Notes: a model not told the origin generated them from the letters alone. A stretch of DNA of 38,669 bases from Candidatus Aenigmatarchaeota archaeon (GCA_030614705.1 JAUWTN010000003.1:1-38669); one strand, 5' to 3'; positions 584 to 38,668 are shown, numbered from the stretch's first letter. Numbers and translations: made by a program.

Positions 584-603
584 TTTTAAAAATAAGATAT
601 AAT

Positions 604-1893: not shown

Positions 1894-1895
1894 AC

Positions 1896-2477: not shown

Positions 2478-2500
2478 AAAATACTAAAATACAATTAATT

Positions 2501-4095: not shown

Positions 4096-4154
4096 ACAAA
4101 ATAGTAAAAAATAGAAACTTTATTTCAGTAAATATTTAACAATTAACTTAAAAA

Positions 4155-4883: not shown

Positions 4884-4948
4884 TATTATATAAGGTAAAA
4901 CTAAAAGATTGTAAGGAATTTATTATAAATTCGTTTCCAGTTCATATT

Positions 4949-5506: not shown

Positions 5507-5552
5507 TTGTAAATATGCAAAAAGAATCCCTTAGAAAGAAAATTAATTAATT

Positions 5553-6506: not shown

Positions 6507-6579
6507 TTCATCACAAAATACCTATTAATGCAATAAATCAGAATTACTGAAAAATTAAAGATTGATTCCTTTATAGATT

Positions 6580-7197: not shown

Positions 7198-7225
7198 AAA
7201 CAATAAAAATGAATACTACCTAATT

Positions 7226-7843: not shown

Positions 7844-7873
7844 ACTATTTAAAATTTAAGATTGCATTACTTT

Positions 7874-8296
7874 ATGGTATATAAACCCGATTGTACGCAT
7901 GCTTTTCATGAACTAAACCGATTAAATTTTATTGCAAGAGTGTATTTAGCAAGTAAATCTTCTTTAGAAGAATTTAAAGAATCTGTTGAAGAAATTGATT
8001 CAAACAGATATATTAGCGATATACTTAAGTACCTTGATGACAATAATTCTGAACTTGCTAAAATGGAGAAAAGTCTAAGAGACCGCATAGCAAGTGAATA
8101 TGAACCCTTTCAATATCCTGAAAATTTTGAAGAAAATCTTAGGGATATTTTCGGAAAGATAACCAAACTAAGTGAAGGAAAACTTCCTGAGGCTGTAAAA
8201 ATATCATATAATGATTTACTAAACTTGCAGAAGATTATACAACCCGTTTACGATGATATTTACAAAAACCCGGATTATTGCTCTACTTTTCTCTAA
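7874..8296 (+). CDS. Hypothetical protein
   Basis: ORF filling the gap. ATG 7874 is preferred over TTG 7862. Helical and acidic, no motif. Confidence 0.6.
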   Translation: MVYKPDCTHAFHELNRLNFIARVYLASKSSLEEFKESVEEIDSNRYISDILKYLDDNNSELAKMEKSLRDRIASEYEPFQYPENFEENLRDIFGKITKLSEGKLPEAVKISYNDLLNLQKIIQPVYDDIYKNPDYCSTFL

Positions 8297-8360
8297 AATA
8301 TCCTCTTAACTGATAATTAAACTCCAAATAAGATTCTTAAACTTAATTAATAATTGAATA

Positions 8361-9728: not shown

Positions 9729-10258
9729 TGGGAATCCAAACAAATTGGCATGTTTTAACAGGGGGTCCATGTTCTGGTAAATCAAAAGTCATTGAATACA
9801 TCAAATCCAAAGGACACAATACATCCAAAGAAGTTGCAAGAAATATAATAGATAATGGGATTGCAAATGGAAAAACTGTGGAAGAAATCAGAGAAAATAC
9901 AATAAAATTTCAAAATGACATCCTAAACCTTAAGATTAAACTTGAAAATAATCTAGATCCAAAACAGACAATTTTTCTTGACCGGGGAATTCCTGATTCA
10001 ATTGTTTATTTCAAAGAAGCTGGACTTGATATAAATATTGCAATTAAAGAGTCCAATAAAAGACAATACAAAAAAGTTTTCTTTCTTGAACAACCACCCA
10101 TCAAAAATGATTACGCAAGAACAGAAGATGTAAAAACCTCAAAAAGAATCAGCAAACTCCTGTTTAAAGCGTACCTTGATTTGGGGTATAATTTAATAAC
10201 CGTGCCGGTAACCAAAATAATTGAGGAAAAAGCCGAGATTATTTTAAATAATTTATGA
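9728..10258 (+). CDS. P-loop ATPase/kinase (AAA_28, NadR-like)
   Basis: Walker A VLTGGPCSGKS, plus EVAR, FLDRGIPD and DYARTE. TAATG overlap with the upstream gene. Confidence 0.82.
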   Translation: MGIQTNWHVLTGGPCSGKSKVIEYIKSKGHNTSKEVARNIIDNGIANGKTVEEIRENTIKFQNDILNLKIKLENNLDPKQTIFLDRGIPDSIVYFKEAGLDINIAIKESNKRQYKKVFFLEQPPIKNDYARTEDVKTSKRISKLLFKAYLDLGYNLITVPVTKIIEEKAEIILNNL

Positions 10259-10550: not shown

Positions 10551-12104
10551 TTAATCTCGGTTTGATATCCTTTTTGTTTTCATGTGATTTACTATATCCC
10601 TGATTTTATCCTTTTTCAAATAGACCAACACACCTAATCCAACCATTAAAAGAATTAACAAATAAACCCCGTAATTTGATTCTCCTTGTTTCGATGAATT
10701 GCATATTAAAGAAGTTGAATTGCAACCATATTCGCAGGTTTGAATTGCTATCCATTTGTTATCTCCACATTCCTGCAATATCTCTCCTAAACATCTCTTA
10801 GCCCCTTCATCACATATTCTTTCAGATATTTCCAGTCCTTCATCTCCCTCAATAATAGAGTCTCCTAAACTCTCCGCATAGAACTCCACAAAAGTATCAT
10901 TTATTAACTCCACCTCTTTTTCTCCGAAAACTTCGTAAGTTATAATAACTTCATTTCCTTCGCTCAATTCTGAATAAATAAATAAATATTCCGGATCATT
11001 TTCAACAATTTCTATTGTTGCTCCTAAAGCTGTTACGGTAATTAAATCCGTTGAATTTGCAAATGCTTTTGGAATAGAATCATAAATAATAAAGTTCTTC
11101 GCTGTTTCATTTCCACTGTATTTTATTTTCATTGATAATCTGGATCTATTTTGCTCTGCCTTGAATTCTCTTGTTGCTTCCAAATCAGAAGTTATACTCG
11201 CAGACAATCTCAACATATTCTGCTTTGCCTGTTCGCTCATTTTTCCCTTTGCAAGAACCTTTTCTATTGCTGCCTGCAATCTTAAATTATTTCTTAAACC
11301 AACACCCGGGATTAATTCAAGTTTCTTTGTTGCATTTTTTAATACTTCTTTCTTTGGTAGAATGGAAATACCTCCAGGACTGCTTCCACCCCCATCATCA
11401 TTATTATCCTCATCTCCACCAGGAATATCCACAGAAATCTCCTCAGACACAGAATCCGCATTTGAAGACACAACCTGAACTGTTAAAGTTCCTGAAGCAC
11501 CTTCAGACAGGGTTATTTTCCATGATGCTGCTTTTGTTTCACCTGAACCACCCTCACCACCAGAGATATCACCTAAATTTATGGAGCTTGAACCCGTAAC
11601 AGTTACACCTGAAAGAGAAGAAATAGTGGCAACACAATTTTCTGCGTCAGTTTCTCCCCAATTCTGCACAGTTATCTGAACAGTCTCACTGCCAGAAGAC
11701 ATTATTGTGCTAATTGGGGTAACAGATAAACTCAATGAAGGTGGAGAAACAACATCAAAATAATCTGAATCTGAAGACTCTGATCCTGATTGTGTAGTTA
11801 CAGTAACACTTATCTGTTGCATATTCAATTTTTCGTTTGCTTTCACAGTTGTCCATGAAACTGATGTTGTTCCTGAAGAAAAAGATTTTTCCTCAGATTC
11901 TTCCACACTGAATCCCGAAGGTAAATTAATTTTTGCTGTTCCGCTTTCAGACAACCCATTGACAGTTACAGTAAAAGCAATACCCTGCATAACGGTTCCT
12001 TCATTTGAACCTGGTTGTGATACAGAAACCATATAAGAACCAGCAGAAACCAATTGTAGACTCAACAAACAAAGCATCATCCCAATCAACAGTTTTCTTA
12101 TCAT
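10551..12104 (-). CDS. Secreted, C-terminally membrane-anchored surface protein (517 aa)
   Basis: Signal peptide MIRKLLIGMMLCLLSLQLVSA, Ser/Thr-rich beta domains (CARDB-like), acidic/Gly-Ser linker, Cys-rich module, then TM YGVYLLILLMVGLGVLVYL and a basic tail. ATGA overlap with the upstream frame. Confidence 0.85.
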   Translation of the reverse strand: MIRKLLIGMMLCLLSLQLVSAGSYMVSVSQPGSNEGTVMQGIAFTVTVNGLSESGTAKINLPSGFSVEESEEKSFSSGTTSVSWTTVKANEKLNMQQISVTVTTQSGSESSDSDYFDVVSPPSLSLSVTPISTIMSSGSETVQITVQNWGETDAENCVATISSLSGVTVTGSSSINLGDISGGEGGSGETKAASWKITLSEGASGTLTVQVVSSNADSVSEEISVDIPGGDEDNNDDGGGSSPGGISILPKKEVLKNATKKLELIPGVGLRNNLRLQAAIEKVLAKGKMSEQAKQNMLRLSASITSDLEATREFKAEQNRSRLSMKIKYSGNETAKNFIIYDSIPKAFANSTDLITVTALGATIEIVENDPEYLFIYSELSEGNEVIITYEVFGEKEVELINDTFVEFYAESLGDSIIEGDEGLEISERICDEGAKRCLGEILQECGDNKWIAIQTCEYGCNSTSLICNSSKQGESNYGVYLLILLMVGLGVLVYLKKDKIRDIVNHMKTKRISNRD

Positions 12105-13249
12105 ATTTTATCCATATCGCAATTACCAACCCTAAAATGTTCTCTTATTTTTTCTGTTCCCTTATCACTTTCAAGGTTTATTACAACCATATATTCCCCA
12201 TCAACCCATGAAGAACCCGGCAAGATTTTAAGCAATCCATATCCCTTCTCATTTGTCTGATTTAATACATAAGTTACACTATAATCACTACCCTCCTCAA
12301 GGATACTAAATCCAAATCCAAACATATAAATTTTCTCCACAGAAATATTTGCTCCTGAAATAGATGTTCTATTGAATTCGTAGGTTTTTATAACTACACC
12401 AAAAGTATCATTTTCATCAAGGCACCATTTATGCTTTGCAATTATCATTGAAGCATTGTTATAATACATAATTTCCCAGGAAGGTTGTTTCTCCCAAGAT
12501 AAGTTTTCTTGCTCTTCACCAAACCTGATTGAATCTGTCCAAATATCTGTTGGAAGACGGTTATAATATTCTTTATTGCCGGTTTCATCCCCATAGAAAT
12601 CATAATGATTATCCCCATCGCTTATCTCCGCAACTTCAGTATCATCATCCACTGCAAATTCTGTCAATTCCTGCACTCCATTATTCTTCCCATCATAGAC
12701 AACAATTGTGAAATTCTTGTTTGTAGATTTATTTAGGTCCAAATCCTGATTGCTCTCATTTATCATAGTATAATAACTTATTGTAGTGTCTGATAACCAT
12801 AATTTTACTCCCAAAGAAGATACATTTGCGGTTGTGATTCCTTCCCCTGGCCAAGGTCCTATTCCTGCAAGATATAATCCAGAAGTGAAATTCTCCCCAA
12901 CTTTCACTCCAACAGAATCAGAGAAATTTAAGTCTGTATCAAAAAATGCTGCGAGTGAGCATTCATCATCTGAACACGCAGGACTGCTCAGGTTCTTACC
13001 TTCTATTCCGCATGCAAGAATTACATTGTAAAGAGTACTGCTTATATTCAGTTTCTGCATATATCTCAACCTGTACTCATCACCCAACAAAGATAATATT
13101 TCAGAAGAATTAATCCCAGCAATTCCAAAGTCGAGATACCATTCCATATCAGAACAATTTGTTATTTTCAAAGTAATTAAAGTGTAATTCCTGTCAAAGG
13201 TTAAATTAATTTCACTTCCTTCTGAATATTCAACACCCAAATTACTCAT
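12101..13249 (-). CDS. Segment 4 of the interrupted giant surface protein
   Basis: The frame stays open upstream to TAG 13393. No signal peptide of its own. The confidence value is for it being an independent gene. Confidence 0.4.
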   Translation of the reverse strand: MSNLGVEYSEGSEINLTFDRNYTLITLKITNCSDMEWYLDFGIAGINSSEILSLLGDEYRLRYMQKLNISSTLYNVILACGIEGKNLSSPACSDDECSLAAFFDTDLNFSDSVGVKVGENFTSGLYLAGIGPWPGEGITTANVSSLGVKLWLSDTTISYYTMINESNQDLDLNKSTNKNFTIVVYDGKNNGVQELTEFAVDDDTEVAEISDGDNHYDFYGDETGNKEYYNRLPTDIWTDSIRFGEEQENLSWEKQPSWEIMYYNNASMIIAKHKWCLDENDTFGVVIKTYEFNRTSISGANISVEKIYMFGFGFSILEEGSDYSVTYVLNQTNEKGYGLLKILPGSSWVDGEYMVVINLESDKGTEKIREHFRVGNCDMDKI

Positions 13250-13390
13250 ATTGAAATAACAGGATTCGTTCTGGCTTATATAGAATTTTCCTGATGATTT
13301 GTTTAACAGGAAATACTTGTCTCCCCCATCCAGTTCCAGTGTTGTTATATTTGTAGAATCATTTCCAGGTCCAACAATTTCACAGCCTCC

Positions 13391-14977
13391 CTAAGGATGT
13401 GCTCCTCTCATAACACCCAAGACAGCCACACTACCACCACACCTGGTTTCATTTCTTAATTCATGAATATCCCCATAATTTTCCCACCCAAATCTTTCAA
13501 GTTTCACAGGTTCAAAACCTGAAATCATATGGGCATAACCTGAATAAGTAGTCACAAGATATTTTCTTGTTGTTGCTCTAGGCCATTTCCAGTCTTTCAT
13601 TTTCTCCATTCCTTCGCTTGATTCCGCAATAATTCCAAACGCATATCTGCCCGAAGAAATATTATAATCCTGCAGGTTAATTTTAATCTCACATAAATCA
13701 GAATTGCAGGTTGTTACATTTGAATTTATCAGGATTATCTGACCTGTTTCATCATTCCTCGCCTTATCTATTGTAAGATTTATTTCCCCGCTTCCCCCTC
13801 CAGGTCTTTTAACTATAACCGGAATTGTTATATTATCACCATATCTATAATCTCCAAGTTCAGGCCAGTCTCCTGTATTATTCCTGTAAAACATTATCTC
13901 AGTTCCTCTCGGGTCTATACTTAACAGGTACATTCCTTCAAATATTTCCCTCTCCGACTGGTTTGAATGAACAGAAATTATATTTCCGTTCAGGAAATTT
14001 TCAGAATCATTTGAAATAATCAAGGTATCATAAACTCCTTGTAAATTGGTGTCTGCAACAAGTAAATAAACCATATCCTCTTTAGTTTCTACTTCTCCTT
14101 TCATGAAGATTCCTGATTTTGAAAGAGAGGTATTTACAAAAATATAACTGCCTGCACTTACATTTATTCCGGATAAAGTAACCTCATTCTTTTTTATTAA
14201 AGTAATATTCCACAAAGCACCATAAGTATCCATTATTACCCCTCCTGTTGTGTTGTGAGGTGCATTTGTCATATTTGTTTCATTGGTAATCCACACAGTT
14301 GTTCCATTGTTATAAAAATAGACAGGTCTGTCCTGTGTGCAACCCTCATCATCGCATATTTCCCTGAAATATCTTTTTCCAAAATAGAAATTGCCATCTA
14401 ATTGTGGTGGGATAATCTCTATCAGTTCCTCTCCTTCGTGTGTACAGAATTCCCCGCAAATTCCGTTTGCTCTTTTAACTCTGAATTGTTGTTCATCAAC
14501 AGATACAACCTTCCAGTTTGTACCATTCAATTCAAACTCGTCGTCAGTTGTTAATGCGGATGATTCGGTTAAGTCTGTTGAGGCGTTAATCCAGACATGG
14601 GTGGAATTAGAAACTACATAAACTGTTTGTCCTTCATCACAAGATTCACCACCCCAATAATCTTTCCATTCCTTTTCAGATTCTACACAAAATCTCATTC
14701 CACGATTATTATCGTATTTATCAGACACATTCAACTCTAAAAATGGACTGCATTCTTCGCCCAAACAGATTTTAATTCTGTCTGCGAGCATAACTCTGAA
14801 AATATAATCATATGGATCACCATCCTCATACTTACCAACATCTAAAATCTTCCATTCCCTGCCACCAATAGTAAAACTATCTCCATCACTTAATCCCTGT
14901 GTAGAAGCCAGATTAACAGATGCATTAATCCATACGTGTGTTGTGTTTGATACAACATACACCGTACTGCCATTCAC
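13391..14977 (-). CDS. Segment 3 of the interrupted giant surface protein
   Basis: The GTG start falls inside a repeat unit. Carries VYVVSNxTHVWINAS repeats. Confidence 0.4.
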   Translation of the reverse strand: MNGSTVYVVSNTTHVWINASVNLASTQGLSDGDSFTIGGREWKILDVGKYEDGDPYDYIFRVMLADRIKICLGEECSPFLELNVSDKYDNNRGMRFCVESEKEWKDYWGGESCDEGQTVYVVSNSTHVWINASTDLTESSALTTDDEFELNGTNWKVVSVDEQQFRVKRANGICGEFCTHEGEELIEIIPPQLDGNFYFGKRYFREICDDEGCTQDRPVYFYNNGTTVWITNETNMTNAPHNTTGGVIMDTYGALWNITLIKKNEVTLSGINVSAGSYIFVNTSLSKSGIFMKGEVETKEDMVYLLVADTNLQGVYDTLIISNDSENFLNGNIISVHSNQSEREIFEGMYLLSIDPRGTEIMFYRNNTGDWPELGDYRYGDNITIPVIVKRPGGGSGEINLTIDKARNDETGQIILINSNVTTCNSDLCEIKINLQDYNISSGRYAFGIIAESSEGMEKMKDWKWPRATTRKYLVTTYSGYAHMISGFEPVKLERFGWENYGDIHELRNETRCGGSVAVLGVMRGAHP

Positions 14978-15560
14978 ACTGCCAGGACATTCTCCTGTTA
15001 CGCATCTATATTGTTTTGCTGTTTATTTATTCTGTGGGCCTTCATCACAATGACCTGCAACTCCATCTACGCTTTCATATAAAATGCATTGTACATTTAC
15101 GAAATTTTGCGGATATGTTAAACTTACATTAAATCTATAGTCCACATCATTACAATCAAAATTACTTACAATACCTCTCTCAACAAAATCCTCTGCAGAT
15201 ATTATCATCTTATTTGCATCATCAACCAAATAACAACCGCCCTCATCACACACATCCCTTTCTCCAATATTTCTTATGAACCATGTCCTGCCTCCCGCGG
15301 TGAAATTATCACCAATAGTTTTATTTATAGTGGAAGTCATATCCACAGGACTAACAGTTAAATTATTCTCTATTTTTATCCATAAATGAGTTGCGTTGGA
15401 GACAATATAGGTGGTATTGGAATCTACAGGACAACCATTAGGTTCTGGATTTGTCCAACTTCCATTTGGCAATATGCAATAAACTCTCGCAGTATTATTG
15501 TCATATTTCTGAGATACAGTAAAATTCCAACAATTCTTACAAGACCCATCACACCAGAGA
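14200..15560 (-). repeat. Four degenerate protein-level repeats of roughly 100-150 aa
   Basis: Cores TTYIVSNATHLWI, TVYVVSNTTHVWI, TVYVVSNSTHVWI and PVYFYNNGTTVWI, each followed by GxxW and preceded by Cys residues. Boundaries are approximate. Confidence 0.75.
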
Positions 15561-16459
15561 CTTATATTATTTGTGCCCCCAGAGCAGGATACATTGTCGC
15601 TCTCTAAGTGCCTCGTTCTTTCTATGTCTACATATACTGTTCGAGAATTATATGCATCATCGTGCAACCACCTCTCATTGTCGCATCTATCCTGATCATT
15701 ACCAACAGAAAAATCTTTATAAATTACTTCCTGCTCGTGTATATGGTAATTATTTATCTCAGGAACATTAAGAACCAAATCTTTTATCCTGAACATCATT
15801 TCCTCATCTACTATACTTCCGCCAATCTCCTCTATTTCAAAAACAACAAAGTATTTATCAGAAGTGAAGTTCTCCAAATAAAGAGTCAAATTGCAGATAT
15901 TGCCAATACAACTGACATCAAATGCATCTTCCAGACCCATATCCGGCATTTTTGCTTCTTCATCAAAAACTTCGAATATTGTTATATTCATCAGATTATG
16001 TGGCTGTGCACAGGAACCATCATCAGGAAGTTTGCATCCTTTAAAAATAATTGTAAGATTTTGGTTTCTTGAGAAAACGGGCCCTTCTTTATCATCTTCC
16101 TCATCCAAACCACCTTCAACAGACAGTTCAATATTATATTCTGAGAAAGAGAACCAGAAAGTTCCAAAGTCTTCCTTACCGTCATATTCTCCATTTATTA
16201 TAGCATAAATATCTGAGGTATCATTCTCATCTATATTTATTGATATATTATAGATTTTCATAGGCATACCAGGCCCTTCTCCAGGCCCTTCATCCAAACT
16301 GACATTAGCAATAAAAGTATCAACAACACTATAAGAGACCTTTTCCGTAGGAGACATAAAATCCTGCATTTTCATCATAGAATCTATGCTGAAATCCACA
16401 TCACCAAGGTTAATAGGCTGCCAATCTGAAACATCATTTGCAAAAATACCAAACAACAC
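15023..16459 (-). CDS. Segment 2 of the interrupted giant surface protein
   Basis: In frame with segment 1, 8 codons after its TAA. Acidic and Cys-rich. Confidence 0.4.
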   Translation of the reverse strand: MLFGIFANDVSDWQPINLGDVDFSIDSMMKMQDFMSPTEKVSYSVVDTFIANVSLDEGPGEGPGMPMKIYNISINIDENDTSDIYAIINGEYDGKEDFGTFWFSFSEYNIELSVEGGLDEEDDKEGPVFSRNQNLTIIFKGCKLPDDGSCAQPHNLMNITIFEVFDEEAKMPDMGLEDAFDVSCIGNICNLTLYLENFTSDKYFVVFEIEEIGGSIVDEEMMFRIKDLVLNVPEINNYHIHEQEVIYKDFSVGNDQDRCDNERWLHDDAYNSRTVYVDIERTRHLESDNVSCSGGTNNISLWCDGSCKNCWNFTVSQKYDNNTARVYCILPNGSWTNPEPNGCPVDSNTTYIVSNATHLWIKIENNLTVSPVDMTSTINKTIGDNFTAGGRTWFIRNIGERDVCDEGGCYLVDDANKMIISAEDFVERGIVSNFDCNDVDYRFNVSLTYPQNFVNVQCILYESVDGVAGHCDEGPQNK

Positions 16460-16483
16460 ATTACAGACAACAGGATAAACTAT

Positions 16484-18976
16484 TTACCGGTCAAAAGCCC
16501 ATATAGATTTTGTTCCATTGTAAATAACAGGCAGAACATTTATGAAGAAATTCCTTATCTCAAATCCACCCCATCCAAAATATTCATCCCCTGTATCATT
16601 ATTCCTCAAAATAATATCAACTCCATACCATCCAGTTGGAAGGTTTCCGGTTATTGTGAGATTTGCTCCTGAAGTAGTGCTCATTATTACAGTGGAACTT
16701 GAATTAAAATCACCTGAATCAAATTCTTTCATCAACTGGTCATTTCTTAAATGATTTACTTCAACTATCAACCCCTCGCATCCAGAACACATTGGAGAAG
16801 AACTGTCTGCAAACTCAGGATCAGCCACAGTTACTCTCAAAGTAACCGGTTCTCCTTCTTTTGTGAACCACATTCCTTCCTCTGCATTTACAGGTTCAGC
16901 AAATATAATATATTTCTTGACCATGAAAAAAGATTCTCCTGTACCATACTCATTACTACCTTCATAATCCGCCTTATACCTGAATTTAATAAAATAAAAT
17001 CCCTCACTGGAAGGAGAATTAAACGATAATGTTGAATTTGCAAAAGATTCATTTATATTGTTTCTATAAACCGAGTCTGAAAATACATTTTCATAATTAG
17101 GAAACTCCCTATGAATCTCCATTATGCTGATATCAAGCAAAGCAGAAGAATTCAATTTTTCTCTTGTCTTTAAATCAGTTAAGTCAATTTTTATTTTTGC
17201 AGTTGTATTTGGTTTTAAAAACCATATAGATTCACCATTTTCACCAATCAAAGAACCTTCTGCGATTAAATGCTGGATTCCAAAAAATGTTGAGCTAGTA
17301 AGTTCATCATCTAATTTTACCTTTACATTATAAACACCTGTCTTATTTAAATTATTAATTATTAAAATACATTGGTCCGCCATTTCTGCCGGGGTACCCT
17401 CCATAGGGACATTGGATAAATTCAGAGCCTCAGTGAAATTATAAAAATTATAATCAACCAAATCTTTATAAGAATTCCCAAGTTCATCAACGATATCAAT
17501 TAAACTGAGTCTTGAACAGTTGTGTGTTGAATTAATTATTGGTATTGTATCTGGTCCATTTGGACCAAAACCATTTTCTGATAATTGCATTATTGCAACA
17601 GTAACATTATCCTCAGGGGAAAATGCACTAACCGTGACACCAGATCCACCCTTATCCATTTTATCAATAAAATTCATATTTACAGCTACCAAAAAAAGTG
17701 ATGATGAAGAAATAGAAAAGCCCATAACAAAACTCTGCTCTTGGGTATTGTGCGTTCCTTTTAGCTCTAATTTATATATCCCCTCTTCTTCTGTATTATT
17801 ATAGGTCCCTTTATATACGCCATCACTCTCTTTTGTTAAACTAATTGTACTTTTAACCCCTTTCGGAGTTATTATCTCTGCAATTGGATAACTTGGATTA
17901 ATTAAATTGCCATTATTATCCTTCGCTATTGCAACAATTGATACAGTAGAATTTTTGGAAAACTGGGAAGTAACAATCCCAACTCTATTTGTTGCATACC
18001 CATACAACTTAAACGAATCTACGAAAATATCAATTAAATTCAGATTATTATTTAGAGAAATTGTATATTTTCCTGTATTGGAAATATTGAATATAAATCT
18101 TACATAACCTGCACTATTTGTTGTGTTTGAATTTGTTGATATTGAATTTCCTGAAGAATCCCTGAGAGAAAAATCTATGGTGCAATTTGTACAGAAACTT
18201 AGGTTTTCATAAATAGCAAGCACAAACATATTCGTTTCTACAGTGAAATCATATTCATCTTTTAACTCAATCAGTATAATCTTTTTACCGTCAGAGTTTA
18301 TACCCGCCACAAGATATTTCGTGCCATTTAAAACTACAATTTTATTTATCCCTGATTCCTGCTCCACTTCATTACCAACATCTTCAGAAGTATTATACAA
18401 TGCAAAATTAGGATCATCATCTATATATAAAGTATCAAAACCTCCTGCCTTGTTTCTGTCAAGAACCGCAAAATAATAAGTATCCAATCCAATAACATAG
18501 GTTCCATTATAAACAGCAGATTTGTTCAGGTTATGTAAATCAGAAAAATTACTTCCTGTTGCCAAAGTTGTTGTATTCACAACAATAACACTATTACTGC
18601 TGTTTCCTGTAAAAAAAGATATAAGATTAAACTTCTGTTCTAAGATTCTAAACTTTATTTTTACTTCTTCTGAACTTGTGGAAAGCAATGCATAATATTC
18701 TCCTTCAGTATAATTGGTCAAAGAAAATGATATATCAAAAGAGGTATTGACAGAATAATCTGTTGAATTTTTCAATGTATCTGAAGAATTATAAATTTTT
18801 AGAGTTAATATTGTTGAACTGCTTAAATCTCCACTTAGTATTAAATTTTCATCAGGCGTGTATATTATTTTTGATGAGGTTACCATCAAAGCATTTACAG
18901 GAGATAATAATAAAAATATTAACAATAAAGATAAAAATAATTTTGGTTTTGTAAATCTTATAGAATAAATAAACAT
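16484..18976 (-). CDS. Segment 1 (N-terminal, signal peptide) of the interrupted giant surface protein
   Basis: Signal peptide KPKLFLSLLLIFLLLSPVNA, MG2/Ig-like starts (SKIIYTPDENL), many N-x-S/T sequons. Confidence 0.6.
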   Translation of the reverse strand: MFIYSIRFTKPKLFLSLLLIFLLLSPVNALMVTSSKIIYTPDENLILSGDLSSSTILTLKIYNSSDTLKNSTDYSVNTSFDISFSLTNYTEGEYYALLSTSSEEVKIKFRILEQKFNLISFFTGNSSNSVIVVNTTTLATGSNFSDLHNLNKSAVYNGTYVIGLDTYYFAVLDRNKAGGFDTLYIDDDPNFALYNTSEDVGNEVEQESGINKIVVLNGTKYLVAGINSDGKKIILIELKDEYDFTVETNMFVLAIYENLSFCTNCTIDFSLRDSSGNSISTNSNTTNSAGYVRFIFNISNTGKYTISLNNNLNLIDIFVDSFKLYGYATNRVGIVTSQFSKNSTVSIVAIAKDNNGNLINPSYPIAEIITPKGVKSTISLTKESDGVYKGTYNNTEEEGIYKLELKGTHNTQEQSFVMGFSISSSSLFLVAVNMNFIDKMDKGGSGVTVSAFSPEDNVTVAIMQLSENGFGPNGPDTIPIINSTHNCSRLSLIDIVDELGNSYKDLVDYNFYNFTEALNLSNVPMEGTPAEMADQCILIINNLNKTGVYNVKVKLDDELTSSTFFGIQHLIAEGSLIGENGESIWFLKPNTTAKIKIDLTDLKTREKLNSSALLDISIMEIHREFPNYENVFSDSVYRNNINESFANSTLSFNSPSSEGFYFIKFRYKADYEGSNEYGTGESFFMVKKYIIFAEPVNAEEGMWFTKEGEPVTLRVTVADPEFADSSSPMCSGCEGLIVEVNHLRNDQLMKEFDSGDFNSSSTVIMSTTSGANLTITGNLPTGWYGVDIILRNNDTGDEYFGWGGFEIRNFFINVLPVIYNGTKSIWAFDR

Positions 18977-21766: not shown

Positions 21767-23155
21767 ATGAAAAAATTTACATACTCAATACTTTTGATGT
21801 TAGTGGCTTTATCGGCCGTAATTGGTCTAAGCATCACAAATACCTATGTGTTAAAAAATAATCCTGAAAATTTGGAAGTAACAGTATACAACTCGAATCT
21901 TGGAGTAATCAAAGAATTAAGAACGCAATATTTAAACACTGGAACAAACCACCTTCTTTATGAAGGAGTTGCTTCAAAGATAGATCCAACCTCGGTAAAA
22001 ATCAAATCAATTAACGGAAACGTAGAAATACTAGAACAAAATTACCGGTATGACCTGATAAGTAAAGCTAAGATTTTGCAAAGATATATTGGAAAAAATA
22101 TAACTGCATACCAGACCTACGGAGACAAAAAAGAAATTGTTGAAGGGACTTTATTAAGTCATAGCAATAATCAACTAGTGTTAAAAACCCGGGAAGGAAT
22201 AAAATTATTTTCTTCTGATGACCTTGACCTACAGGAATTGCCTGAAGGATTAATAACAGTTCCAACTCTTGACTGGCAAATTTACACTGAAGAAGAAAAG
22301 ACGCATAATCTGGAAATGTCTTACATGACTTCCGGGATGAATTGGAAAGCTGACTATGTTGCAACAATGAACAAAGATGACACAAAACTGGATTTCAATG
22401 GCTGGGTGACTGTAACAAATAATGCAGGAACAACATTTAAAAACACTTCATTGAAACTAGTTGCAGGAGATGTGAATAGAGTATCCACTCCAGAAAGGTA
22501 TTCGGATGAAATATATTATAATGCTGAAAAATCCGGCGGTGGAAGCAGTTTTGAAGAAGAAAGTTTGTTTGAATATCATATGTATACACTCCAGAGAAGA
22601 ACAACCCTAAACAATAATGAACAAAAACAAATTTCTTTCTTGACTTCAGAAAATATTGATGTTGAAAAAGAATTCGTCTACGAAAACAACCGATGGTATG
22701 GAAGCAACAACAAAATAAATGTAATGCTTAACTTCGATAACACCAAAACCAATAATCTTGGTATGCCATTACCAAAAGGAACAATAAAGATTTTCAAAAA
22801 GGACAGCGAAGGAAAACTCCAATTTATAGGAGAAGATGGGATTGACCACACCCCAAAAGATGAAACCCTTAGACTGCTTGTAGGGCAGGCATTTGATATT
22901 GTGGGTGAAAGAACTCAAATGGATTATAACAAATTGCCTGGGTGGTATGAATACAAATGGAAAGTAACTCTAAAAAACCACAAAGACGAAAATATTGAAG
23001 TCACCGTTCTTGAGAATACCGGAGGGGATTGGGAAATTGTTAGTGAAAATTACCCGCACACCAAAGAATCAAATTACAAAGTGAAATGGAAAATTCCGGT
23101 AACAGCAAATTCCGAGTCCAATTTGGAATACACAATCAGATACAAACGTTGGTAA
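21767..23155 (+). CDS. DUF4139-family secreted protein
   Basis: Signal peptide, then VTVYNSNLGVIKE, IDPTSV, LEQNYRYDL, SYMTSGMNWKADY, LVAGDV, EYHMYTL, PLPKG and IDHTP. Confidence 0.85.
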   Translation: MKKFTYSILLMLVALSAVIGLSITNTYVLKNNPENLEVTVYNSNLGVIKELRTQYLNTGTNHLLYEGVASKIDPTSVKIKSINGNVEILEQNYRYDLISKAKILQRYIGKNITAYQTYGDKKEIVEGTLLSHSNNQLVLKTREGIKLFSSDDLDLQELPEGLITVPTLDWQIYTEEEKTHNLEMSYMTSGMNWKADYVATMNKDDTKLDFNGWVTVTNNAGTTFKNTSLKLVAGDVNRVSTPERYSDEIYYNAEKSGGGSSFEEESLFEYHMYTLQRRTTLNNNEQKQISFLTSENIDVEKEFVYENNRWYGSNNKINVMLNFDNTKTNNLGMPLPKGTIKIFKKDSEGKLQFIGEDGIDHTPKDETLRLLVGQAFDIVGERTQMDYNKLPGWYEYKWKVTLKNHKDENIEVTVLENTGGDWEIVSENYPHTKESNYKVKWKIPVTANSESNLEYTIRYKRW

Positions 23156-31936: not shown

Positions 31937-34900
31937 TCAGACTTTCTCAAGCGACTTCTCAAGCGAAGTTATATATATCTCAACCATTCTGAAATTTCCT
32001 GTCTTAAGTTTTTTCATAGCAAGTTTAAAGTCAAGTTCATAATCCTCAGTATATATCTTGCGTTCTTTCAAATCCTTTATCTTGGCTTCAATAACTTTTA
32101 ATTTTTCTATATTGGTTTTGTATAAACTCAACTCAGCTTCAGTAATTTTATGCGGGTCATGTTTTGTTGGTCTGAACTCAACAAAGAAAGGTTTACCATC
32201 ATTATATTTTGGATATTGCATTAACCCTGCGCCAACACCCATCCTAGTAATTCTCTGCGAATATTGCTCGCCATATTTTGTTTTTACTTTTTCTATATCC
32301 ACCAAAGATTTTGTATTTAACTGGATTTCTGTAAGAACATTACCCGATATCGCTGATTTAAAGTCCGCCAATACCTGAGAACACATTATAATTCCAATAC
32401 CCCACTTCCTGAATTCCCTCGCTGCTTTTTCAAGAGCAACATAACCTCCAGTCCCCCCATATTTTTCAAGCAACCTATGAACTTCATCAAAAACGAGCAA
32501 TAATTTTAAATCTGAAGATTCTTCCCAAGTCTCTCCAAAAATGGATTTAATTATGTGGTCAACGGCTTTATCATATTCCCCGGGTTTTAATTTATTCAAA
32601 CAAAAAATTGTTATTTCGCCAGAGTTTATGAATTCTTTTATTTTTAATTCAAAGTCTGGTTTTTCAACATCATAAATCAATCCTGGATATGATTTTATAT
32701 CAAAATCACTCATACCAAATTCCTTATATTTCCTTGTGAGATTTGAATCTTTGCACGCCTTCACAAAACCAGTCCATTGCGCTGTTGGGTCAAAAACAAT
32801 TACAGGAATATTTTTATCAAGAGCTTCTTCAGCAATTACAGAAGCGGATACAGATTTCCCGGCTCCTGTTGCCCCAGCGGATATAAGGTGTGTTGTTAAA
32901 TCTTTAGGGTCGAAATAACAATAATTATCAGTTCCTGCAAATTTTCCAATTTTAAATCCTTCCCTCGGAACTTTCTTGTAATCCAAAGGATATAAATATC
33001 TTTGTTCTTTTTCCTTTTCTTTTTTCCAGATAAGATAATAACGCCAGATATAAGTCCCTCCTACGATTATACCGGTTAATAATGCCATTAAAATCAATCC
33101 AACCATCCAGGGTGATTCAAACAATGGTCTGACTACTTCGAAGGTTTCTACATCCATAATCCCTCTATCATAATATATTGCCCAAACTTCTAAATTATAG
33201 AAGCCTTTTTCAGTAATATCCAGCGGTATGTCCTCTCTTACTATCTTTGTGGTCTCTAAAATTACTGAAGTATTCACCTCACTCACCACTTTTCCGGTTT
33301 TCTGCTCTTTAATTATATAAGTTAAATTTATTGGCAACAACTTCTTTTCTCCAAGATTGATTAACTTAACAAGGAATTCAAGATTATCCCCGGGATTTAT
33401 TTCTTTTGTTGCAAGTTCCAGTTCAACAGAGAACACTGCGGTTGCTTTTTCAAGAACCGTAATCGAAATTGGAACATTCTTCGTTTGATCTCTCGCCTTG
33501 ATTACAATATTCCCTGTATAAATCCCGGTGCTTTGGTTTAAAGGAACTGTAAGATAAAGGGGTATCTCTTCTGTTGAATCCGGGGTTATAACTTTTCTTG
33601 TAGAACCCAAACTCAAAATCTCTTTCAAAGTTCCTGTAATTTCAAGACCCGTATCAATATCAGAACTCATTCTGCTCTTTAAAGAAAGTTGATAATTTCT
33701 TGAATCTCCCTGAAATATTCTTACATTGGCGAGATTAGTATCCACAATTAAAGGGAAATCATCCAAAGGACAATCCTGAGGACAGTTCTGGTAATTTTCG
33801 CCAACTTCGCAAACCCCATCCCCGCAAGTTGAAATTTCTAAATCAATTGTAGTGGTTCCGCCTGACGAACTTCCGCTAGGTGAACTTGTACCTGGATCAA
33901 CAGGTGGAGTATAATAATATCCGCTGCAATCAATCAAAGACTCACCAGAATAACAAGATTCCGCAATAATAAATGCAGAAAGCTCTGAAGTATTAAATTC
34001 AAATACATTGCCTGAAGGATCAAAATTTCTATCTAGATAATCAGAACTGGAATTGCATTGTTGAGCCGCATAATTCCAATCATGGCACACAAGAACTTCA
34101 AGATTATTTACATTTTTTATGGTCTTACCTGCAATTATTGCTGATGCAAGTGCCTGCTCAAAATCAATAGTAAAATCCACATTCTCAGTTAAATTTGTCT
34201 CAATTACAATACCTAATAAAACCGTCCCTACAGTATTGGGTAATCCTGCATGCACTAAAGGAAGACTTGTATAATTTGGATAATAATCAAACTTAAAAGG
34301 ATTATTGGTGTTATTGGAATTATTGAAATCAGCATCGCGCAAAACTATTTCCTGGCCGAACAAATCAACCTTCACATCATATTTTCTTTTATGTAATGTC
34401 CAGTTATATATCTCGCTGGTCTTCGTGTTATTTTCATGTATTCTATAAAGCTCATCCAAATCACACCCTTCCCTGTAAAAAGTAAAGTTTGCATCTATAG
34501 GAATTCCATCAGGGTCTATCAAATTGCCTGAAACCTGCACAGGGATATAAATATCAAACCATCCTGTTTTATTGCTCTCAACATTTCCTGCAGTAGTATC
34601 ATTTGCGTAAACAATTATATCATAATCTCCTGTATATTCGGGTCTTGAAAAATTGAAAACAAAATTTCTCTTATCAAATTCATTTTCAGCTGAAAGATAA
34701 GTTTCAGTATAATTACTTAAACCTAAATTCCATGATTGTCCGCTGTTGGTGTGGGTTACCTTAGCGTTCACAGAACTTATATTTTTGTTATCGGTTATAT
34801 TTACTTCAAAAGTTATATAATCTTGAGTATAAGTGTTATTGTTAATGAAATCAGCAGTTATATTTGAAAACCATGGCGAAATAGAATCAACATAGATTAC

Positions 34901-37900
34901 TGCGTCTTCTTCCAAATCAGACAACACCACACCATTCACTTCATAGGTTCCAGTAACTTTCAAATCATTCTCAATTATATTATTAGTAACATTTGGGGCT
35001 GTGCAATTAATATGCCATAACTCATTGCCCGAATGATATGAATAATTAACAACATTGCAATTACTCCCTCCAACTAAAACTGCCCAACTCATATTTTCAG
35101 TAACAGAAGTGCTTCCAGACAAAGCTCTTACACTAAGCTCTAAAGTATCATTTACATTCACATCTGCAACCGGAGTTGTCCCGTTTGGACTGATAATATC
35201 CACAGTAAAATTAATTATTTCAAAGAAGATTGAAATATTTATAAAATCAGGAGCATCTGAATCCAGATTCTCAACTTTAAGAGTATAATTATAAGTCCCC
35301 ACTGCATCAGGACCAACACTTGTATTATAAAATATTTCAACAATTCTTTCCGTATTATTGGTCACAGTAATCGAAAGTTGAGTTGCCTTGTTGGTATCAT
35401 TTAAAGTAAGATATTCTGCAGTTGTTCCTGAATTTACAGTAATTGATAAATTAAAATCGAAGTTTTCATCTTTTATATTATCAATCCCAATTTCGCCTAA
35501 TTTATTTACCTCTGCTTTCAAACCAACGGTTTTATTTAATGTTAAAGGTGCTGCATCCCAATCCAAAGGAGTTATATTCAAAGTAAACGGCAATATCTTT
35601 AAACAATCCAGACAATTGCTGACATTTGCAGTAATATTTAAATTATAAACTCCTATCCAGGAAGTGCCTAAAGTTGAAGCATTTACAGTCATTAATATTG
35701 TTTCTTCCCCCCCGCGATCTAAATTAAAATTATTGTTGCTGAAAGTTATCAGGTTTATAAAAGTTGAAGAATTATCTCCTGTCAGGTTTATAACCGCATT
35801 TGTTAAATTTACATTACCGTAATTCTGTATTGTAAAATTTGTTGTTCTGTCTGAAGATATTGGCACAGAAAGAGAAAGACTGTTTTCAACAAATTCCAAT
35901 TGTTTGTTTGGCTCAACAAAAATTGTTATATTTTTATTAACTGTGTCATAAGTAGCATCTCCGTTTTGCCAGGTAACATTAAACCATATCGTCCTGTTTC
36001 CGGTATCCGCTTCCGAAGTTATTGTTATATTAAATAAGTTTGTGCAATTCTCTCCAGTCCGGATTGGATCGCAAACAAGTTCCTGGATATATATCCCCGC
36101 AATAGAAGAAATATTTATAACTGGACTGTACATGTCCCCAGTCCCATTATTTATTAAAACAAAAGTCATGTTTTGCGTAATATTGTAAACAATGGTGAGA
36201 TTTGATGCTTCAAGATATTCGGGGGTTAAATTTAATTCCGCGGTGGTGTTGCCTCCTTCCACAATAGCCTCAACCACCATACTATCAACTCCCGCAACAT
36301 TATAAAAAATATTTGATTGGTCAGTTATATTGCAGGAAAAAGGGTAAGTATCAGCTCCATATATCTGCGATTCCTTAACTGCGATTCCCTGCGAATTTGT
36401 TGTGTTATTTCCTATATACAAAGTGGTTAAATTATAAAAATCCACTGAATAATCAACAATTCCATCATAAGTATAATTATCCGCCACCATACACTGCAAA
36501 GATAAACTCGCGTTTACCATGCATCTGTATTGCCAGATGCCTGTTGTTGAATTAAGAGTGCAATAATCAGAATCAATTGTCAGATTCTTCACATAAGAGA
36601 ATCCTGTTAAATTAAAATATCTTATTTCTGAATCAGATTCATAAAACGGTTTTTCCGCGTCCGCAATTATTTTCCTTCTCCCAACATTTTCTGTTCCTCC
36701 CAATAAATAAGTATCATTAACAAGTCCGCTGATGCTTTTTCTATGGGTTAAATTTAATTGAGTTGGATTTCCTGAATGGAAATTTACGCAAGCCCCATCA
36801 TCATCCACAAAGCAGATATAATTTATCTGGGCATAAGTCATATCCATAGCATTTTGCTCATGCTCATATTCATTTAGAATAACAGAAATATTTTCAGCTG
36901 AAGAATAAGAACCCGAACAGGTGGCCACAGTCCAGGGTTCTTCAGAAGAATTATAACCCCCATAATTATTCACTAAAGGAGTCAAACCGCATAACACACC
37001 CCCTATTTTTAACTGAAAATCTCCATGATAAGTGCCATCAAAAAACTCACCCCATGCCTTATAACTTATATTTATCTTATCTGTTTTTGTGATATTTGAA
37101 AGATTTTGGAACAATTCCACACCCCCTCCATCCCCAGATAAATCCGCAAAAAAGGTTTCATTCTCAAAGGAAACATTTGATACGCAATCATCACATGAAG
37201 AAACAGTCCACAAAGAAAAATCAGTGGAATCAAAACCCGCATTTAAAATATTATATCCAACATCATTTGTTGACGGATTGCTGTCTTTTAAATTTATTTC
37301 CAAAGTTTTGCTGGCGCTCGCAGTCAGGTTTATTAAAAAAACTAATTCGGTTAGATTATCCAGATATACCCGACTATTATTCAATTCTGATTTTGCTGTT
37401 GAAGTCCAGGGATAAACTGAAAAAGGTATTGTCGCTCCATCCATCCTAAGCTGAGTATTATTTAATTTCCAGTCAATTAATTCAAAATCACCATCCGCAA
37501 AAAAACTTCCATTCAAAATTATTGGGTAATTTACTCTGTCCCTTCCTGAAGTATCTTCAATAGTTACATTAAGCCTATATTTATTTACAAGATACCAACT
37601 CACGTTTGCGCCGCCAACACTTTGCCCGCAATTATCTTTCACTGAAGAATTTATACTTAAATTTTGTCCTTTATAATAACTTCCGGTTTCTAAAGGCGAC
37701 AGGATTGTTAAATTTAATCTGCCCATCAGGAATACTGATTTATTGGTCTGATTATTGGAAATATTATAATAATTATCAGCGCCGGTTTTATTAATTATTA
37801 CTATTAATATACTTTGTCCAACATTAAAACTGCTTGAACTATTATATTCCAGAGAACATCCTCCTGAAGAATTTGTCGAACTGTTCCCAATTGGTGTGGA

Positions 37901-38668
37901 GGTATTATCCATATAGAAAGAACAATTGTAGCCTGATTCTTCTGCAGGCGACCCATACAAATTTAATAACCTTGCATGAAAAATAGTGGATTCATTTTTG
38001 TAAAAAGAAAAATTAATCGGGTTGGTTATTTCAGGATGAATACTCCCCCTGATGGTTATATTTAATTCTGTTGAATTTCCTTCATTGTAATAAGGGTCAT
38101 TAAATATACCTATCTTCCAATTTGAATGTCCTAAAGAAAAATTCTGATTTGGTGTGAAATTAAAATTACAGAATCCACTTGCGTTTGACTGCGTATAATT
38201 TGCAAAAACACCCCCAACCCATAAAGAACAATTTGCGCCTTCAACACAATCCGAAGAATTTGTATTATTAACAAAAACAGAAAGAAAGATTGACTCGTTC
38301 CTAAAAACAAGAGAATTATTTCCTGAACCTAAAGAGCCATTGTAGATTACAGAAATCTCATGCTCAAATATATTGAAATTTATAATTGTTGTGTTGCTTA
38401 CGCTATGGAACTTCTGGGAAAGATTGCTCTGATTGCAATCGAAATATTCGAACAAGAACCTGCTTGTCCCTGTCCAGTTTTTATCTGAAGTTAAATTAAA
38501 TTCCACAGACTCATTGCCTACGTTTTTTAGACCTTTATTCACCCAATTCCCTGTCTGATTTTCAAAAACCCAGAGTGTTAAATTAGTTATATCCCCATCA
38601 ATATCCGATACATTAAGTGAAAAAGTGAAATTAGTGCCCCAGATTCCTGAATAAGGAGTGAGATCAAT
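31937..38668 (-). CDS. Giant surface protein fused to a C-terminal HerA/VirB4-like (DUF87-type) ATPase; 5' end outside the window
   Basis: Frame is open to the window edge (at least 2243 aa). Sequon-rich ectodomain, CGDGVC...CPQDC module, one TM helix, Walker A GATGAGKS (32852-32875), VIVFDP, Walker B LVFDEVH and REFRKWGIGIIMCSQ. Confidence 0.9.
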   Translation of the reverse strand: MDLTPYSGIWGTNFTFSLNVSDIDGDITNLTLWVFENQTGNWVNKGLKNVGNESVEFNLTSDKNWTGTSRFLFEYFDCNQSNLSQKFHSVSNTTIINFNIFEHEISVIYNGSLGSGNNSLVFRNESIFLSVFVNNTNSSDCVEGANCSLWVGGVFANYTQSNASGFCNFNFTPNQNFSLGHSNWKIGIFNDPYYNEGNSTELNITIRGSIHPEITNPINFSFYKNESTIFHARLLNLYGSPAEESGYNCSFYMDNTSTPIGNSSTNSSGGCSLEYNSSSSFNVGQSILIVIINKTGADNYYNISNNQTNKSVFLMGRLNLTILSPLETGSYYKGQNLSINSSVKDNCGQSVGGANVSWYLVNKYRLNVTIEDTSGRDRVNYPIILNGSFFADGDFELIDWKLNNTQLRMDGATIPFSVYPWTSTAKSELNNSRVYLDNLTELVFLINLTASASKTLEINLKDSNPSTNDVGYNILNAGFDSTDFSLWTVSSCDDCVSNVSFENETFFADLSGDGGGVELFQNLSNITKTDKINISYKAWGEFFDGTYHGDFQLKIGGVLCGLTPLVNNYGGYNSSEEPWTVATCSGSYSSAENISVILNEYEHEQNAMDMTYAQINYICFVDDDGACVNFHSGNPTQLNLTHRKSISGLVNDTYLLGGTENVGRRKIIADAEKPFYESDSEIRYFNLTGFSYVKNLTIDSDYCTLNSTTGIWQYRCMVNASLSLQCMVADNYTYDGIVDYSVDFYNLTTLYIGNNTTNSQGIAVKESQIYGADTYPFSCNITDQSNIFYNVAGVDSMVVEAIVEGGNTTAELNLTPEYLEASNLTIVYNITQNMTFVLINNGTGDMYSPVINISSIAGIYIQELVCDPIRTGENCTNLFNITITSEADTGNRTIWFNVTWQNGDATYDTVNKNITIFVEPNKQLEFVENSLSLSVPISSDRTTNFTIQNYGNVNLTNAVINLTGDNSSTFINLITFSNNNFNLDRGGEETILMTVNASTLGTSWIGVYNLNITANVSNCLDCLKILPFTLNITPLDWDAAPLTLNKTVGLKAEVNKLGEIGIDNIKDENFDFNLSITVNSGTTAEYLTLNDTNKATQLSITVTNNTERIVEIFYNTSVGPDAVGTYNYTLKVENLDSDAPDFINISIFFEIINFTVDIISPNGTTPVADVNVNDTLELSVRALSGSTSVTENMSWAVLVGGSNCNVVNYSYHSGNELWHINCTAPNVTNNIIENDLKVTGTYEVNGVVLSDLEEDAVIYVDSISPWFSNITADFINNNTYTQDYITFEVNITDNKNISSVNAKVTHTNSGQSWNLGLSNYTETYLSAENEFDKRNFVFNFSRPEYTGDYDIIVYANDTTAGNVESNKTGWFDIYIPVQVSGNLIDPDGIPIDANFTFYREGCDLDELYRIHENNTKTSEIYNWTLHKRKYDVKVDLFGQEIVLRDADFNNSNNTNNPFKFDYYPNYTSLPLVHAGLPNTVGTVLLGIVIETNLTENVDFTIDFEQALASAIIAGKTIKNVNNLEVLVCHDWNYAAQQCNSSSDYLDRNFDPSGNVFEFNTSELSAFIIAESCYSGESLIDCSGYYYTPPVDPGTSSPSGSSSGGTTTIDLEISTCGDGVCEVGENYQNCPQDCPLDDFPLIVDTNLANVRIFQGDSRNYQLSLKSRMSSDIDTGLEITGTLKEILSLGSTRKVITPDSTEEIPLYLTVPLNQSTGIYTGNIVIKARDQTKNVPISITVLEKATAVFSVELELATKEINPGDNLEFLVKLINLGEKKLLPINLTYIIKEQKTGKVVSEVNTSVILETTKIVREDIPLDITEKGFYNLEVWAIYYDRGIMDVETFEVVRPLFESPWMVGLILMALLTGIIVGGTYIWRYYLIWKKEKEKEQRYLYPLDYKKVPREGFKIGKFAGTDNYCYFDPKDLTTHLISAGATGAGKSVSASVIAEEALDKNIPVIVFDPTAQWTGFVKACKDSNLTRKYKEFGMSDFDIKSYPGLIYDVEKPDFELKIKEFINSGEITIFCLNKLKPGEYDKAVDHIIKSIFGETWEESSDLKLLLVFDEVHRLLEKYGGTGGYVALEKAAREFRKWGIGIIMCSQVLADFKSAISGNVLTEIQLNTKSLVDIEKVKTKYGEQYSQRITRMGVGAGLMQYPKYNDGKPFFVEFRPTKHDPHKITEAELSLYKTNIEKLKVIEAKIKDLKERKIYTEDYELDFKLAMKKLKTGNFRMVEIYITSLEKSLEKV

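Follow-up and report, generated by a model that had tools for sequence, protein, structure and literature searches.

What could a HerA-clade ATPase be doing at the inner end of a giant surface protein? The question is raised by a gene at the edge of a 38,669-base stretch of DNA from a Candidatus Aenigmatarchaeota archaeon (GCA_030614705.1 JAUWTN010000003.1:1-38669). This stretch, referred to here as the window, is the entire contig C31 of assembly G000 (55 contigs, 729 kb, 33% G+C, estimated completeness 78%); it also encodes a class I lysyl-tRNA synthetase, in keeping with an archaeon. The gene occupies positions 31937..38668 of the minus strand as a single open frame of 2,243 residues, with no stop over 6,732 bases until its own stop codon (31937-31939). 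Its 5' end is open: the contig end cuts the gene off, and some 728 N-terminal residues are missing from the assembly. There is very good reason to regard the gene, of which the 3' three quarters are present, as one for a giant surface protein of SPEARE type from a DPANN archaeon, with the large part predicted to lie outside the cell and the ATPase predicted to lie in the cytoplasm.

For DPANN archaea, contact with host cells is a necessity. This giant family, which claims a sizeable fraction of very small genomes and extends to several further DPANN groups, is one of the most conspicuous candidates for attachment or uptake. The picture of the family is sharpened here by a motor that is nearer to HerA than to VirB4, by a near-constant partner gene and by the lack of a channel-like neighbour.

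An extracellular arm, one membrane helix and an ATPase

The asymmetry of the protein is reflected in its N-x-S/T sequons. The frame holds 116 of these, 115 in the 1,852 residues ahead of a single transmembrane (TM) helix and one in the 365 residues behind it, against 39.0 ± 5.6 and 1.0 ± 1.0 respectively in 500 composition-preserving shuffles. The arm ahead of the helix (residues 1-1852 of the truncated frame; 33113..38668, minus strand), delimited by translation and sequon count, runs off the contig end and is presumably N-glycosylated. The helix is placed at residues 1853-1878 (33035..33112, minus strand) by a hydropathy maximum (the top 19-residue window scores 2.16, at residue 1856), by a helix in the AlphaFold2 (AF2) model and by flanking charge, the 15 residues on its N-terminal side holding one lysine or arginine and the 15 on its C-terminal side five. 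Two weaker windows above 1.6, near residues 1140 and 1470, bear sequons and charged residues and would be strands rather than TM helices. A first-pass annotation, made from the sequence of the window, had described a sequon-dense part of more than 1800 residues, a TM helix at about 33040-33110 and two halves on opposite sides of the membrane; the first two agree closely with the present boundaries, and the third is borne out by both the sequon counts and the charge distribution.

Behind the helix lies a P-loop ATPase core of the HerA clade (residues 1905-2170; 32159..32956, minus strand), delimited by Pfam, motifs and the AF2 model. The Walker A motif (GATGAGKS, residues 1932-1939, 32852-32875), the Walker B motif (LLLVFDE, residues 2056-2062, 32483-32503) and the RKWG..SQ motif (RKWGIGIIMCSQ, residues 2087-2098, 32375-32410) are read from the translation of the minus strand. 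Pfam assigns DUF87 (5.6e-9) and HerA_C (1.1e-7), both over the cut-off, with ResIII at E 0.0089, and the intact ATPase that had been reported earlier on the strength of its Walker A, Walker B and RK-G...SQ signatures is recovered in full. An AF2 model of the domain, with 30 relatives in the alignment (pLDDT 92, pTM 0.87), opens with a long helix (13-48) in which the TM segment is continued, passes through two short strands into a RecA-type core and closes with three C-terminal helices (337-362, 368-382 and 386-402), which make up the helical tail (residues 2177-2243; 31940..32140, minus strand). Invariant in the 30 relatives are G92/T94/G95/G97/K98, E222, R225, R244, R247 and Q258, a set that corresponds to the P-loop, the Walker B glutamate, three arginines and the SQ glutamine. 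Judged by its sequence the ATPase is intact and strongly conserved, and by analogy with its relatives it is likely to be active and to form a ring. The TM segment, about 69% of which is L/I/V/F/G/A, is by contrast the least conserved stretch in the same alignment, with an entropy of 2.79 bits against 1.41 in the core.

What the contig end has removed can be seen in a database protein, P0002 (2,971 residues), whose sequence matches that of the window protein except at 6 of 2,243 positions. A hydrophobic signal anchor opens the additional 728 residues and is followed by a PQQ/FG-GAP-like beta-propeller (PQQ_2 1.9e-12, Beta-prop_CGLA 2.3e-13; a weak FG-GAP/Itfg2 match, E 5.6e-4, is under the cut-off). 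Both features lie outside the window and G000 and are known here from P0002 only. Recovery of the full gene, which the first-pass annotation had proposed, did not succeed for the genome itself: at k = 15 to 127 the contig end has no overlap with any other contig of G000, and tblastn of G000 with the first 760 residues of P0002 matched the window only. Sequon-rich frames with a signal-like start are also truncated by the ends of contigs C43 (plus end; 1,077 residues, 62 sequons), C19 (plus end; 729 residues, 36 sequons) and C55 (minus end; 129 residues, 6 sequons). As candidates for the missing N-terminus all were rejected by tblastn with the N-terminus of P0002.

In eleven full-length orthologues of 2,909-2,990 residues the arm is 33-78% identical and the TM-plus-ATPase part 57-96%. 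The ectodomain is probably beta-rich, as suggested by the propeller matches of P0002 and by the Ig-like, NEW3 and filamin families listed for relatives; no Ig-like domain was resolved by Pfam in the window's own arm. Near the membrane, a Ser/Gly/Thr-rich stretch gives way to a Cys-rich linker (residues 1608-1640; 33749..33847, minus strand; read from the translation) with six cysteines at residues 1615-1633, and this is followed by a sequon-poor segment (residues 1641-1852; 33113..33748, minus strand), which carries 0 to 3 sequons per 100 residues against 4 to 11 further out. The BLAST matches of many relatives, which also serve to delimit this segment, start near query residues 1610-1640: the membrane-proximal segment travels with the ATPase.

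A gene cut by a contig end, with its first 728 residues missing from the assembly, might be suspected of being an assembly chimera or a decaying gene, in which ectodomain and ATPase would not be one protein. The chance of this is vanishingly small. The fusion, the central claim of the first-pass annotation, recurs in 578 tblastn-confirmed loci of species-representative genomes; in all 76 independent loci retained out of these for neighbourhood analysis it is open, full-length genes among them. The window frame is itself uninterrupted, P0002 is full-length and nearly identical, and contigs from other sequencing runs cross the TM region with neither indels nor joints (X1 32927-33095, X9 33043-33465, X2 33070-33575). 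This cross-run support consists of short Logan contigs, none covering the full 2-kb stretch, and holes in their coverage carry no meaning.

A published layout and a motor nearest to HerA

The layout of the giant protein is already published, and this copy is nothing new in kind. The first-pass annotation had offered the architecture as new and had itself named an earlier description as what would overturn it; such descriptions are found in Hamm et al. 2019 (PMC6642349) and Reva et al. 2023 (PMC10266531). Its statement that no characterised member bears a giant ectodomain survives in one respect: the layout has been described under the name SPEARE, but the accessible portions of the literature on SPEARE-type proteins yielded no biochemical characterisation of any member. 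Hamm et al. gave that name to giants of Nanohaloarchaeota that lie for the most part outside the cytoplasm and have a TM helix close to their C-terminal end, read their conserved cytoplasmic part as a type III restriction enzyme, established by proteomics that the protein is made, and noted similar sequences in Aenigmarchaeota, Woesearchaeota, Micrarchaeota and Altiarchaeales (PMC6642349). The protein considered here shares with them the extracellular bulk, the position of the TM helix, a cytoplasmic part that is the most conserved and a ResIII match. It is unlike them in its length (about 2,971 residues as against 5,998 to 8,553; PMC6642349), in its origin from a cold-seep or marine-sediment organism rather than a hypersaline one, and in that no serine protease, laminin-G or toxin-like module was matched by Pfam at E<=0.1 in the window protein or in P0002. 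The likeness to NAR1_1133, AQV86_04780 and SVXNc_0300 is drawn from their published description.

Reva et al. 2023 argued that the protease, laminin-G and toxin-like modules are not real features of the family, re-read the cytoplasmic part as a VirB4/TraG-like ATPase and proposed a type-IV-like secretion 'straw' (PMC10266531), ideas taken up again in later papers. For SVXNc_0300 and BNXNv_0298 they describe a Sec signal, a PQQ-type propeller, Ig-like repeats, one TM helix, a cytoplasmic VirB4/TraG-like ATPase and a terminal coiled coil, in this order (PMC10266531). The present protein would follow it, with the first two parts observed in P0002 and the Ig-like repeats probable by comparison with relatives. 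The differences are that the present protein has about a third of their length, that the gene downstream encodes a coiled-coil protein where theirs is reported to be a second ATPase gene with PF03135, and that the ATPase, which they liken to VirB4, is here nearer to HerA by VIA-align. What the first-pass annotation put forward, a surface appendage with a coupled motor that would serve the transfer of DNA or protein or the attachment to a host, is the same as these published hypotheses.

The affinity with HerA is consistent across methods. In a profile search of PDB sequences the best match is HerA (4d2i, 1.5e-12), followed by seven further HerA-type or DUF87 proteins and, further down, by DotL (1e-3), FtsK (0.05) and TrwB (0.12). 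Foldseek likewise places HerA first (1.5e-13), in the same order as the profile search. VIA-align gives Z scores of 26.5 and 25.4 for two archaeal HerA structures, 25.2 for a defence HerA, 24.2 for DndH, 23.7 for the C-domain of VirB4, 19.4 for TrwB, 18.5 for the VirB4 of R388 and 18.2 for FtsK. The placement in the HerA/VirB4/FtsK superfamily proposed at first pass is one on which the three methods agree.

Among the 30 relatives, Pfam finds DUF87 in 30, HerA_C in 29 and ResIII in 18, with weak matches to TrwB_AAD_bind (15), AAA_10 (14) and FtsK_SpoIIIE (12). The NCBIfam matches, all far under cut-off so that no curated family score is reached, are to CedD (29 of 30), HerA_Thermprot (29), antiphage HerA (22), TraC (22), TraD (20), CedB (3) and VirB4_CagE (1). 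For the window domain itself, the CedD model scores 42.8 bits where 600 are required and aligns over just some 50 residues round the P-loop; the HerA model scores 37.9 bits (cut-off 800). PF03135, the N-terminal domain of VirB4, is absent at E<=0.001 from the 30 relatives and from all eight short tandem members (described below) that were tested. On sequence grounds the ATPase is a distinct clade of the FtsK-HerA superfamily, nearest to HerA and outside HerA, VirB4, Ced and FtsK proper. Other DUF87 ATPases, separate from this one, are encoded on G000 contigs C50, C29 and C19.

None of the named ATPase families provides a full match. The HerA of Sulfolobus solfataricus (PDB 4d2i) shares the core fold (Z 26.5, rmsd (root-mean-square deviation) 3.1 over 254 residues), the Walker motifs and the R..SQ sensor region, but the model has no HAS-barrel N-domain, only two short strands between TM helix and P-loop. 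HerA and anti-phage HerA also differ in their partners: no NurA, Sir2 or DUF4297 partner accompanies the giant gene, and Pfam found no NurA match among the neighbours in the window. CedB and CedD of Sulfolobales are, like the present ATPase, membrane-anchored members of the HerA clade, and CedD is the commonest NCBIfam match; they have a VirB4-like N-domain and multi-pass CedA/CedE partners (PMC11868833), neither of which was found here, and the Ced ATPases are without a giant ectodomain. From VirB4 and type IV secretion ATPases the protein is set apart by the missing PF03135 and by a family score under cut-off; no VirB6-like family recurs within 10 kb in the 76 loci. From FtsK/SpoIIIE it differs in having one TM helix in place of several N-terminal helices, a linker and alpha/beta/gamma motor domains (P0002 scores 12.9 bits against FtsK_SpoIIIE, cut-off 24). 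An analogy that implies no homology is offered by integrin-type receptors, in which a propeller head is followed by an Ig-like chain and one TM helix, and a rod-like adaptor is contacted by the cytoplasmic end. Integrins, unlike the giant protein, are without an ATPase, and the analogy serves as a clue to a possible mode of action.

The family itself is widespread. Representatives of 50% clusters number 969 at E<=1e-3 and 344 at E<=1e-30; 518 relatives have 1,233-3,926 residues and 47 more have 3,927-5,000. Among the 150 matches listed, the ATPase is mostly at the very C-terminal end of proteins of 353 to 7,878 residues, some of which have longer tails. In a sample of the phylum (E<=1e-30) the family occurs in 75 of 151 genomes, 43 of 89 high-quality genomes and 46 of 96 genera, and three of four other genomes of the same genus carry it. 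The class that holds two metagenome-assembled genomes labelled Nanohaloarchaea has ATPases 41-64% identical in 27 of 42 genomes, with frames up to 12,145 residues; none of those listed is of 5,998, 8,553, 9,409 or 8,880 residues, a comparison that is uninformative as the frames run from stop to stop. Members are also found in records labelled Woesearchaeota, Parvarchaeota, Micrarchaeota, Nanoarchaeota and others, and include a 'Ca. Nanosalina' protein of 4,079 residues (38% identical) and the Guaymas relatives RLJ00211.1, RLJ03592.1 and RLJ00157.1, which differ from the RLG14629.1 cited by Hamm 2019. Parts of the window sequence are present in runs of 10 cold-seep and marine-sediment metagenome studies. 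In a tree of the ATPase family, drawn from 110 rows taken at random out of 276 plus the window protein and rooted on a single in-genome outgroup with a very long branch, ectodomains of one size class tend to group together (40 changes, compared with 61.8 in shuffles, 0 of 200 of which are as low).

A coiled-coil partner and the question of a channel

Two bases past the stop codon of the giant gene starts the gene for P0246 (29730..31934, minus strand), a soluble, Lys/Glu-rich coiled-coil protein of 734 residues with no hydrophobic segments. A homologue is present in 68 of the 76 loci, in nearly all of them directly downstream on the same strand, and co-transcription with the giant gene is predicted from this arrangement. 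Of the eight loci without a partner, three offer insufficient sequence at that place or have a same-strand open reading frame (ORF) with no match. When the 610 non-nested ORFs of the 76 loci are clustered, only the giant protein and the partner form families that recur in more than seven loci; by single linkage the partner cluster also takes in ORFs similar to P0247, a neighbouring surface glycoprotein discussed further below. No recurring family of multi-pass membrane proteins stands beside the giant gene in these loci.

In an alignment of 34 members the partner is conserved over its first ~290 residues, as an acidic N-terminal motif followed by long helices, and an EEIGELRS motif is nearly invariant. 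The AF2 model is all-helical (pLDDT 73, pTM 0.25). Its fold has no PDB match in Foldseek at E<=0.001, the profile of 34 members finds coiled-coil noise only in PDB and Pfam (keratin, BLOC1_2, Baculo_PEP_C), and in the protein Atlas it falls in unnamed DPANN clusters only (best score 0.90). No mention of a coiled-coil partner was found in the portions of the SPEARE literature covered. The partner provides a second handle for biochemistry on the giant family.

A second member of the giant family, usually short (~550-730 residues), is found in tandem on the same strand in 10 of the 76 loci (L020, L022, L023, L028, L032, L042, L058, L060, L067 and L072). The partner gene is next on the same strand in eight of these; in L020 the sole partner match lies on the other strand, and L023 is without one. 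The tandem members are hints, at the level of gene arrangement, that some rings may be hetero-oligomeric.

The explanation that best accommodates these observations as a whole runs as follows. The arm would be exported by Sec, glycosylated, and would bind another cell through its propeller head and repeats. The cytoplasmic domains would form a HerA-like ring just under the membrane, bundling several arms at the contact site. Such a ring would hydrolyse ATP and, together with the coiled-coil partner, act on the cytoplasmic side, serving as an anchored motor or as an organiser. By analogy with the nearest structural relatives it would most likely handle DNA, or else the partner scaffold. The giant protein would not itself be a conduit through the membrane. 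Taken in its entirety, as a SPEARE-type arm with a HerA-like ring, a partner and an action on the cytoplasmic side, this explanation could as easily prove wrong as right, and the step in which the ring acts from the cytoplasmic side with no channel of its own is put at slightly under an even chance.

The principal competitor is a trans-envelope conduit similar to type IV secretion, a 'straw' for secretion or uptake through which the ATPase would drive effectors or DNA into or out of a partner cell, as proposed by Reva 2023 and also by the first-pass annotation. In its favour, the superfamily is made up of ring translocases, with VirB4 and TrwB among the structural neighbours (Z 23.7 and 19.4), and a share of the relatives have TrwB_AAD_bind and AAA_10 (weak) or TraC and TraD matches, as counted above. 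The tandem second member in 10 of the 76 loci resembles the second ATPase gene reported in Reva 2023 (PMC10266531). On the other side, HerA-type proteins outrank VirB4 in all three comparisons, the VirB4 N-domain is missing from relatives and tandem members alike, and the VirB4_CagE and CedB models are matched in few relatives and far under their cut-offs. No conserved multi-pass protein of the VirB6 or CedA type stands beside the gene within 10 kb, and one unconserved hydrophobic helix per subunit would make a poor pore lining. Because the TM helix is the least conserved segment, a self-contained channel is disfavoured, and the continuous channel envisaged at first pass as a property of the protein alone finds no support. 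On balance the conduit is judged unlikely, while deserving serious attention.

Several points weigh against the cytoplasmic ring and its partner. To our knowledge, moving a polymer is what every FtsK-HerA superfamily member characterised so far does. Several membrane-bound ones, namely CedB/CedD, VirD4 and FtsK, move it across the membrane, and these precedents leave room for a conduit with partners encoded elsewhere. The neighbourhood comparison covers genes within 10 kb and families common to several loci. Cytoplasmic bridges of up to 11 nm between a nanohaloarchaeon carrying such a protein and its host, described in PMC11001535, would also fit the conduit. Five of the 76 loci have opposite-strand genes downstream and no partner. 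Pieces of the gene in two RNA-labelled libraries occur as short contigs only and do not demonstrate transcription. Binding to a host is suggested by the types of domain present, and oligomerisation by likeness to ring-forming relatives. Finally, about half of the sampled genomes are without the family, and it is therefore not essential.

A different role would confine the motor to its own protein, as a biogenesis or turnover device that inserts, folds, extracts or recycles only the giant arm. VirB4 is thought to dislocate pilin, and the association of the ATPase with ectodomains of widely varying size and content (353 to 7,878 residues) would be in line with such a task. The signal anchor at the N-terminus of P0002 suggests ordinary Sec export, however, a conserved separate partner gene is left unexplained, and we know of no precedent in the HerA clade. 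This role is considered very improbable.

Beyond the anchored motor or organiser on the cytoplasmic side, a bolder version may be envisaged, in which DPANN archaea at large share a machine for cell contact that has no relation to type IV secretion or Ced, its two conserved components being the giant protein and the coiled-coil partner. Six integrin-like arms would be bundled by a ring of the HerA clade under the membrane, the partner would act as adaptor, and ATP hydrolysis would be coupled to the capture or movement of DNA from the host or to contact force. This is a speculative idea with a small chance of being right; if true, it would amount to a new kind of inter-cellular interface motor.

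Surface proteins and other genes around the giant gene

Convergent with the giant gene and its partner is the gene for P0247 (26468..29626, plus strand), a surface glycoprotein of 1,052 residues with an N-terminal anchor and a C-terminal TM helix, for which no Pfam family was matched. It has homologues in 18 of the 76 loci, upstream or downstream of the giant gene. Locus L001, whose ATPase is 96% identical and which is syntenic on both sides, has a P0247 homologue in the same place and a paralogue upstream (L001 2-2157), so that the giant gene is flanked on both sides. Between this upstream paralogue and the giant gene lies an ORF of 89 residues, and similar small ORFs occur in four loci.

A second cluster of surface proteins may be present at 10551-18976 (minus strand), where five successive large ORFs (517, 382, 528, 478 and 830 residues) show only weak, sub-cut-off matches of Ig-like type (DUF11, MG2, filamin).

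In other genomes of the phylum, family members lie in stop-free frames of 13,242 to 14,526 codons (for example G138:C3, G103:C2, G141:C2, G183:C7, G071:C2 and G066:C1). These and the longest frame of the nanohaloarchaeal class (12,145) exceed 9,409 residues as stop-free, uninspected frames; a protein of that length is called the largest of cultivated archaea in PMC10266531.

At 574-10258, mostly on the plus strand, the window carries a run of genes of the archaeal-type mevalonate pathway, which comprises a UbiD-like decarboxylase, the large and small subunits of AcnX, a UbiX-type flavoprotein, a GHMP kinase and a protein of the amino-acid-kinase family, together with two DUF116 paralogues and a Bax-inhibitor-like membrane protein. 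The DPANN group is often said to lack the synthesis of lipid precursors, and the mevalonate genes are noteworthy in a DPANN-type genome of 0.7 Mb. A DUF4139/DUF4140 protein of 462 residues (21767-23155, plus strand) is encoded between the genes for lysyl-tRNA synthetase and ribosomal protein L4.

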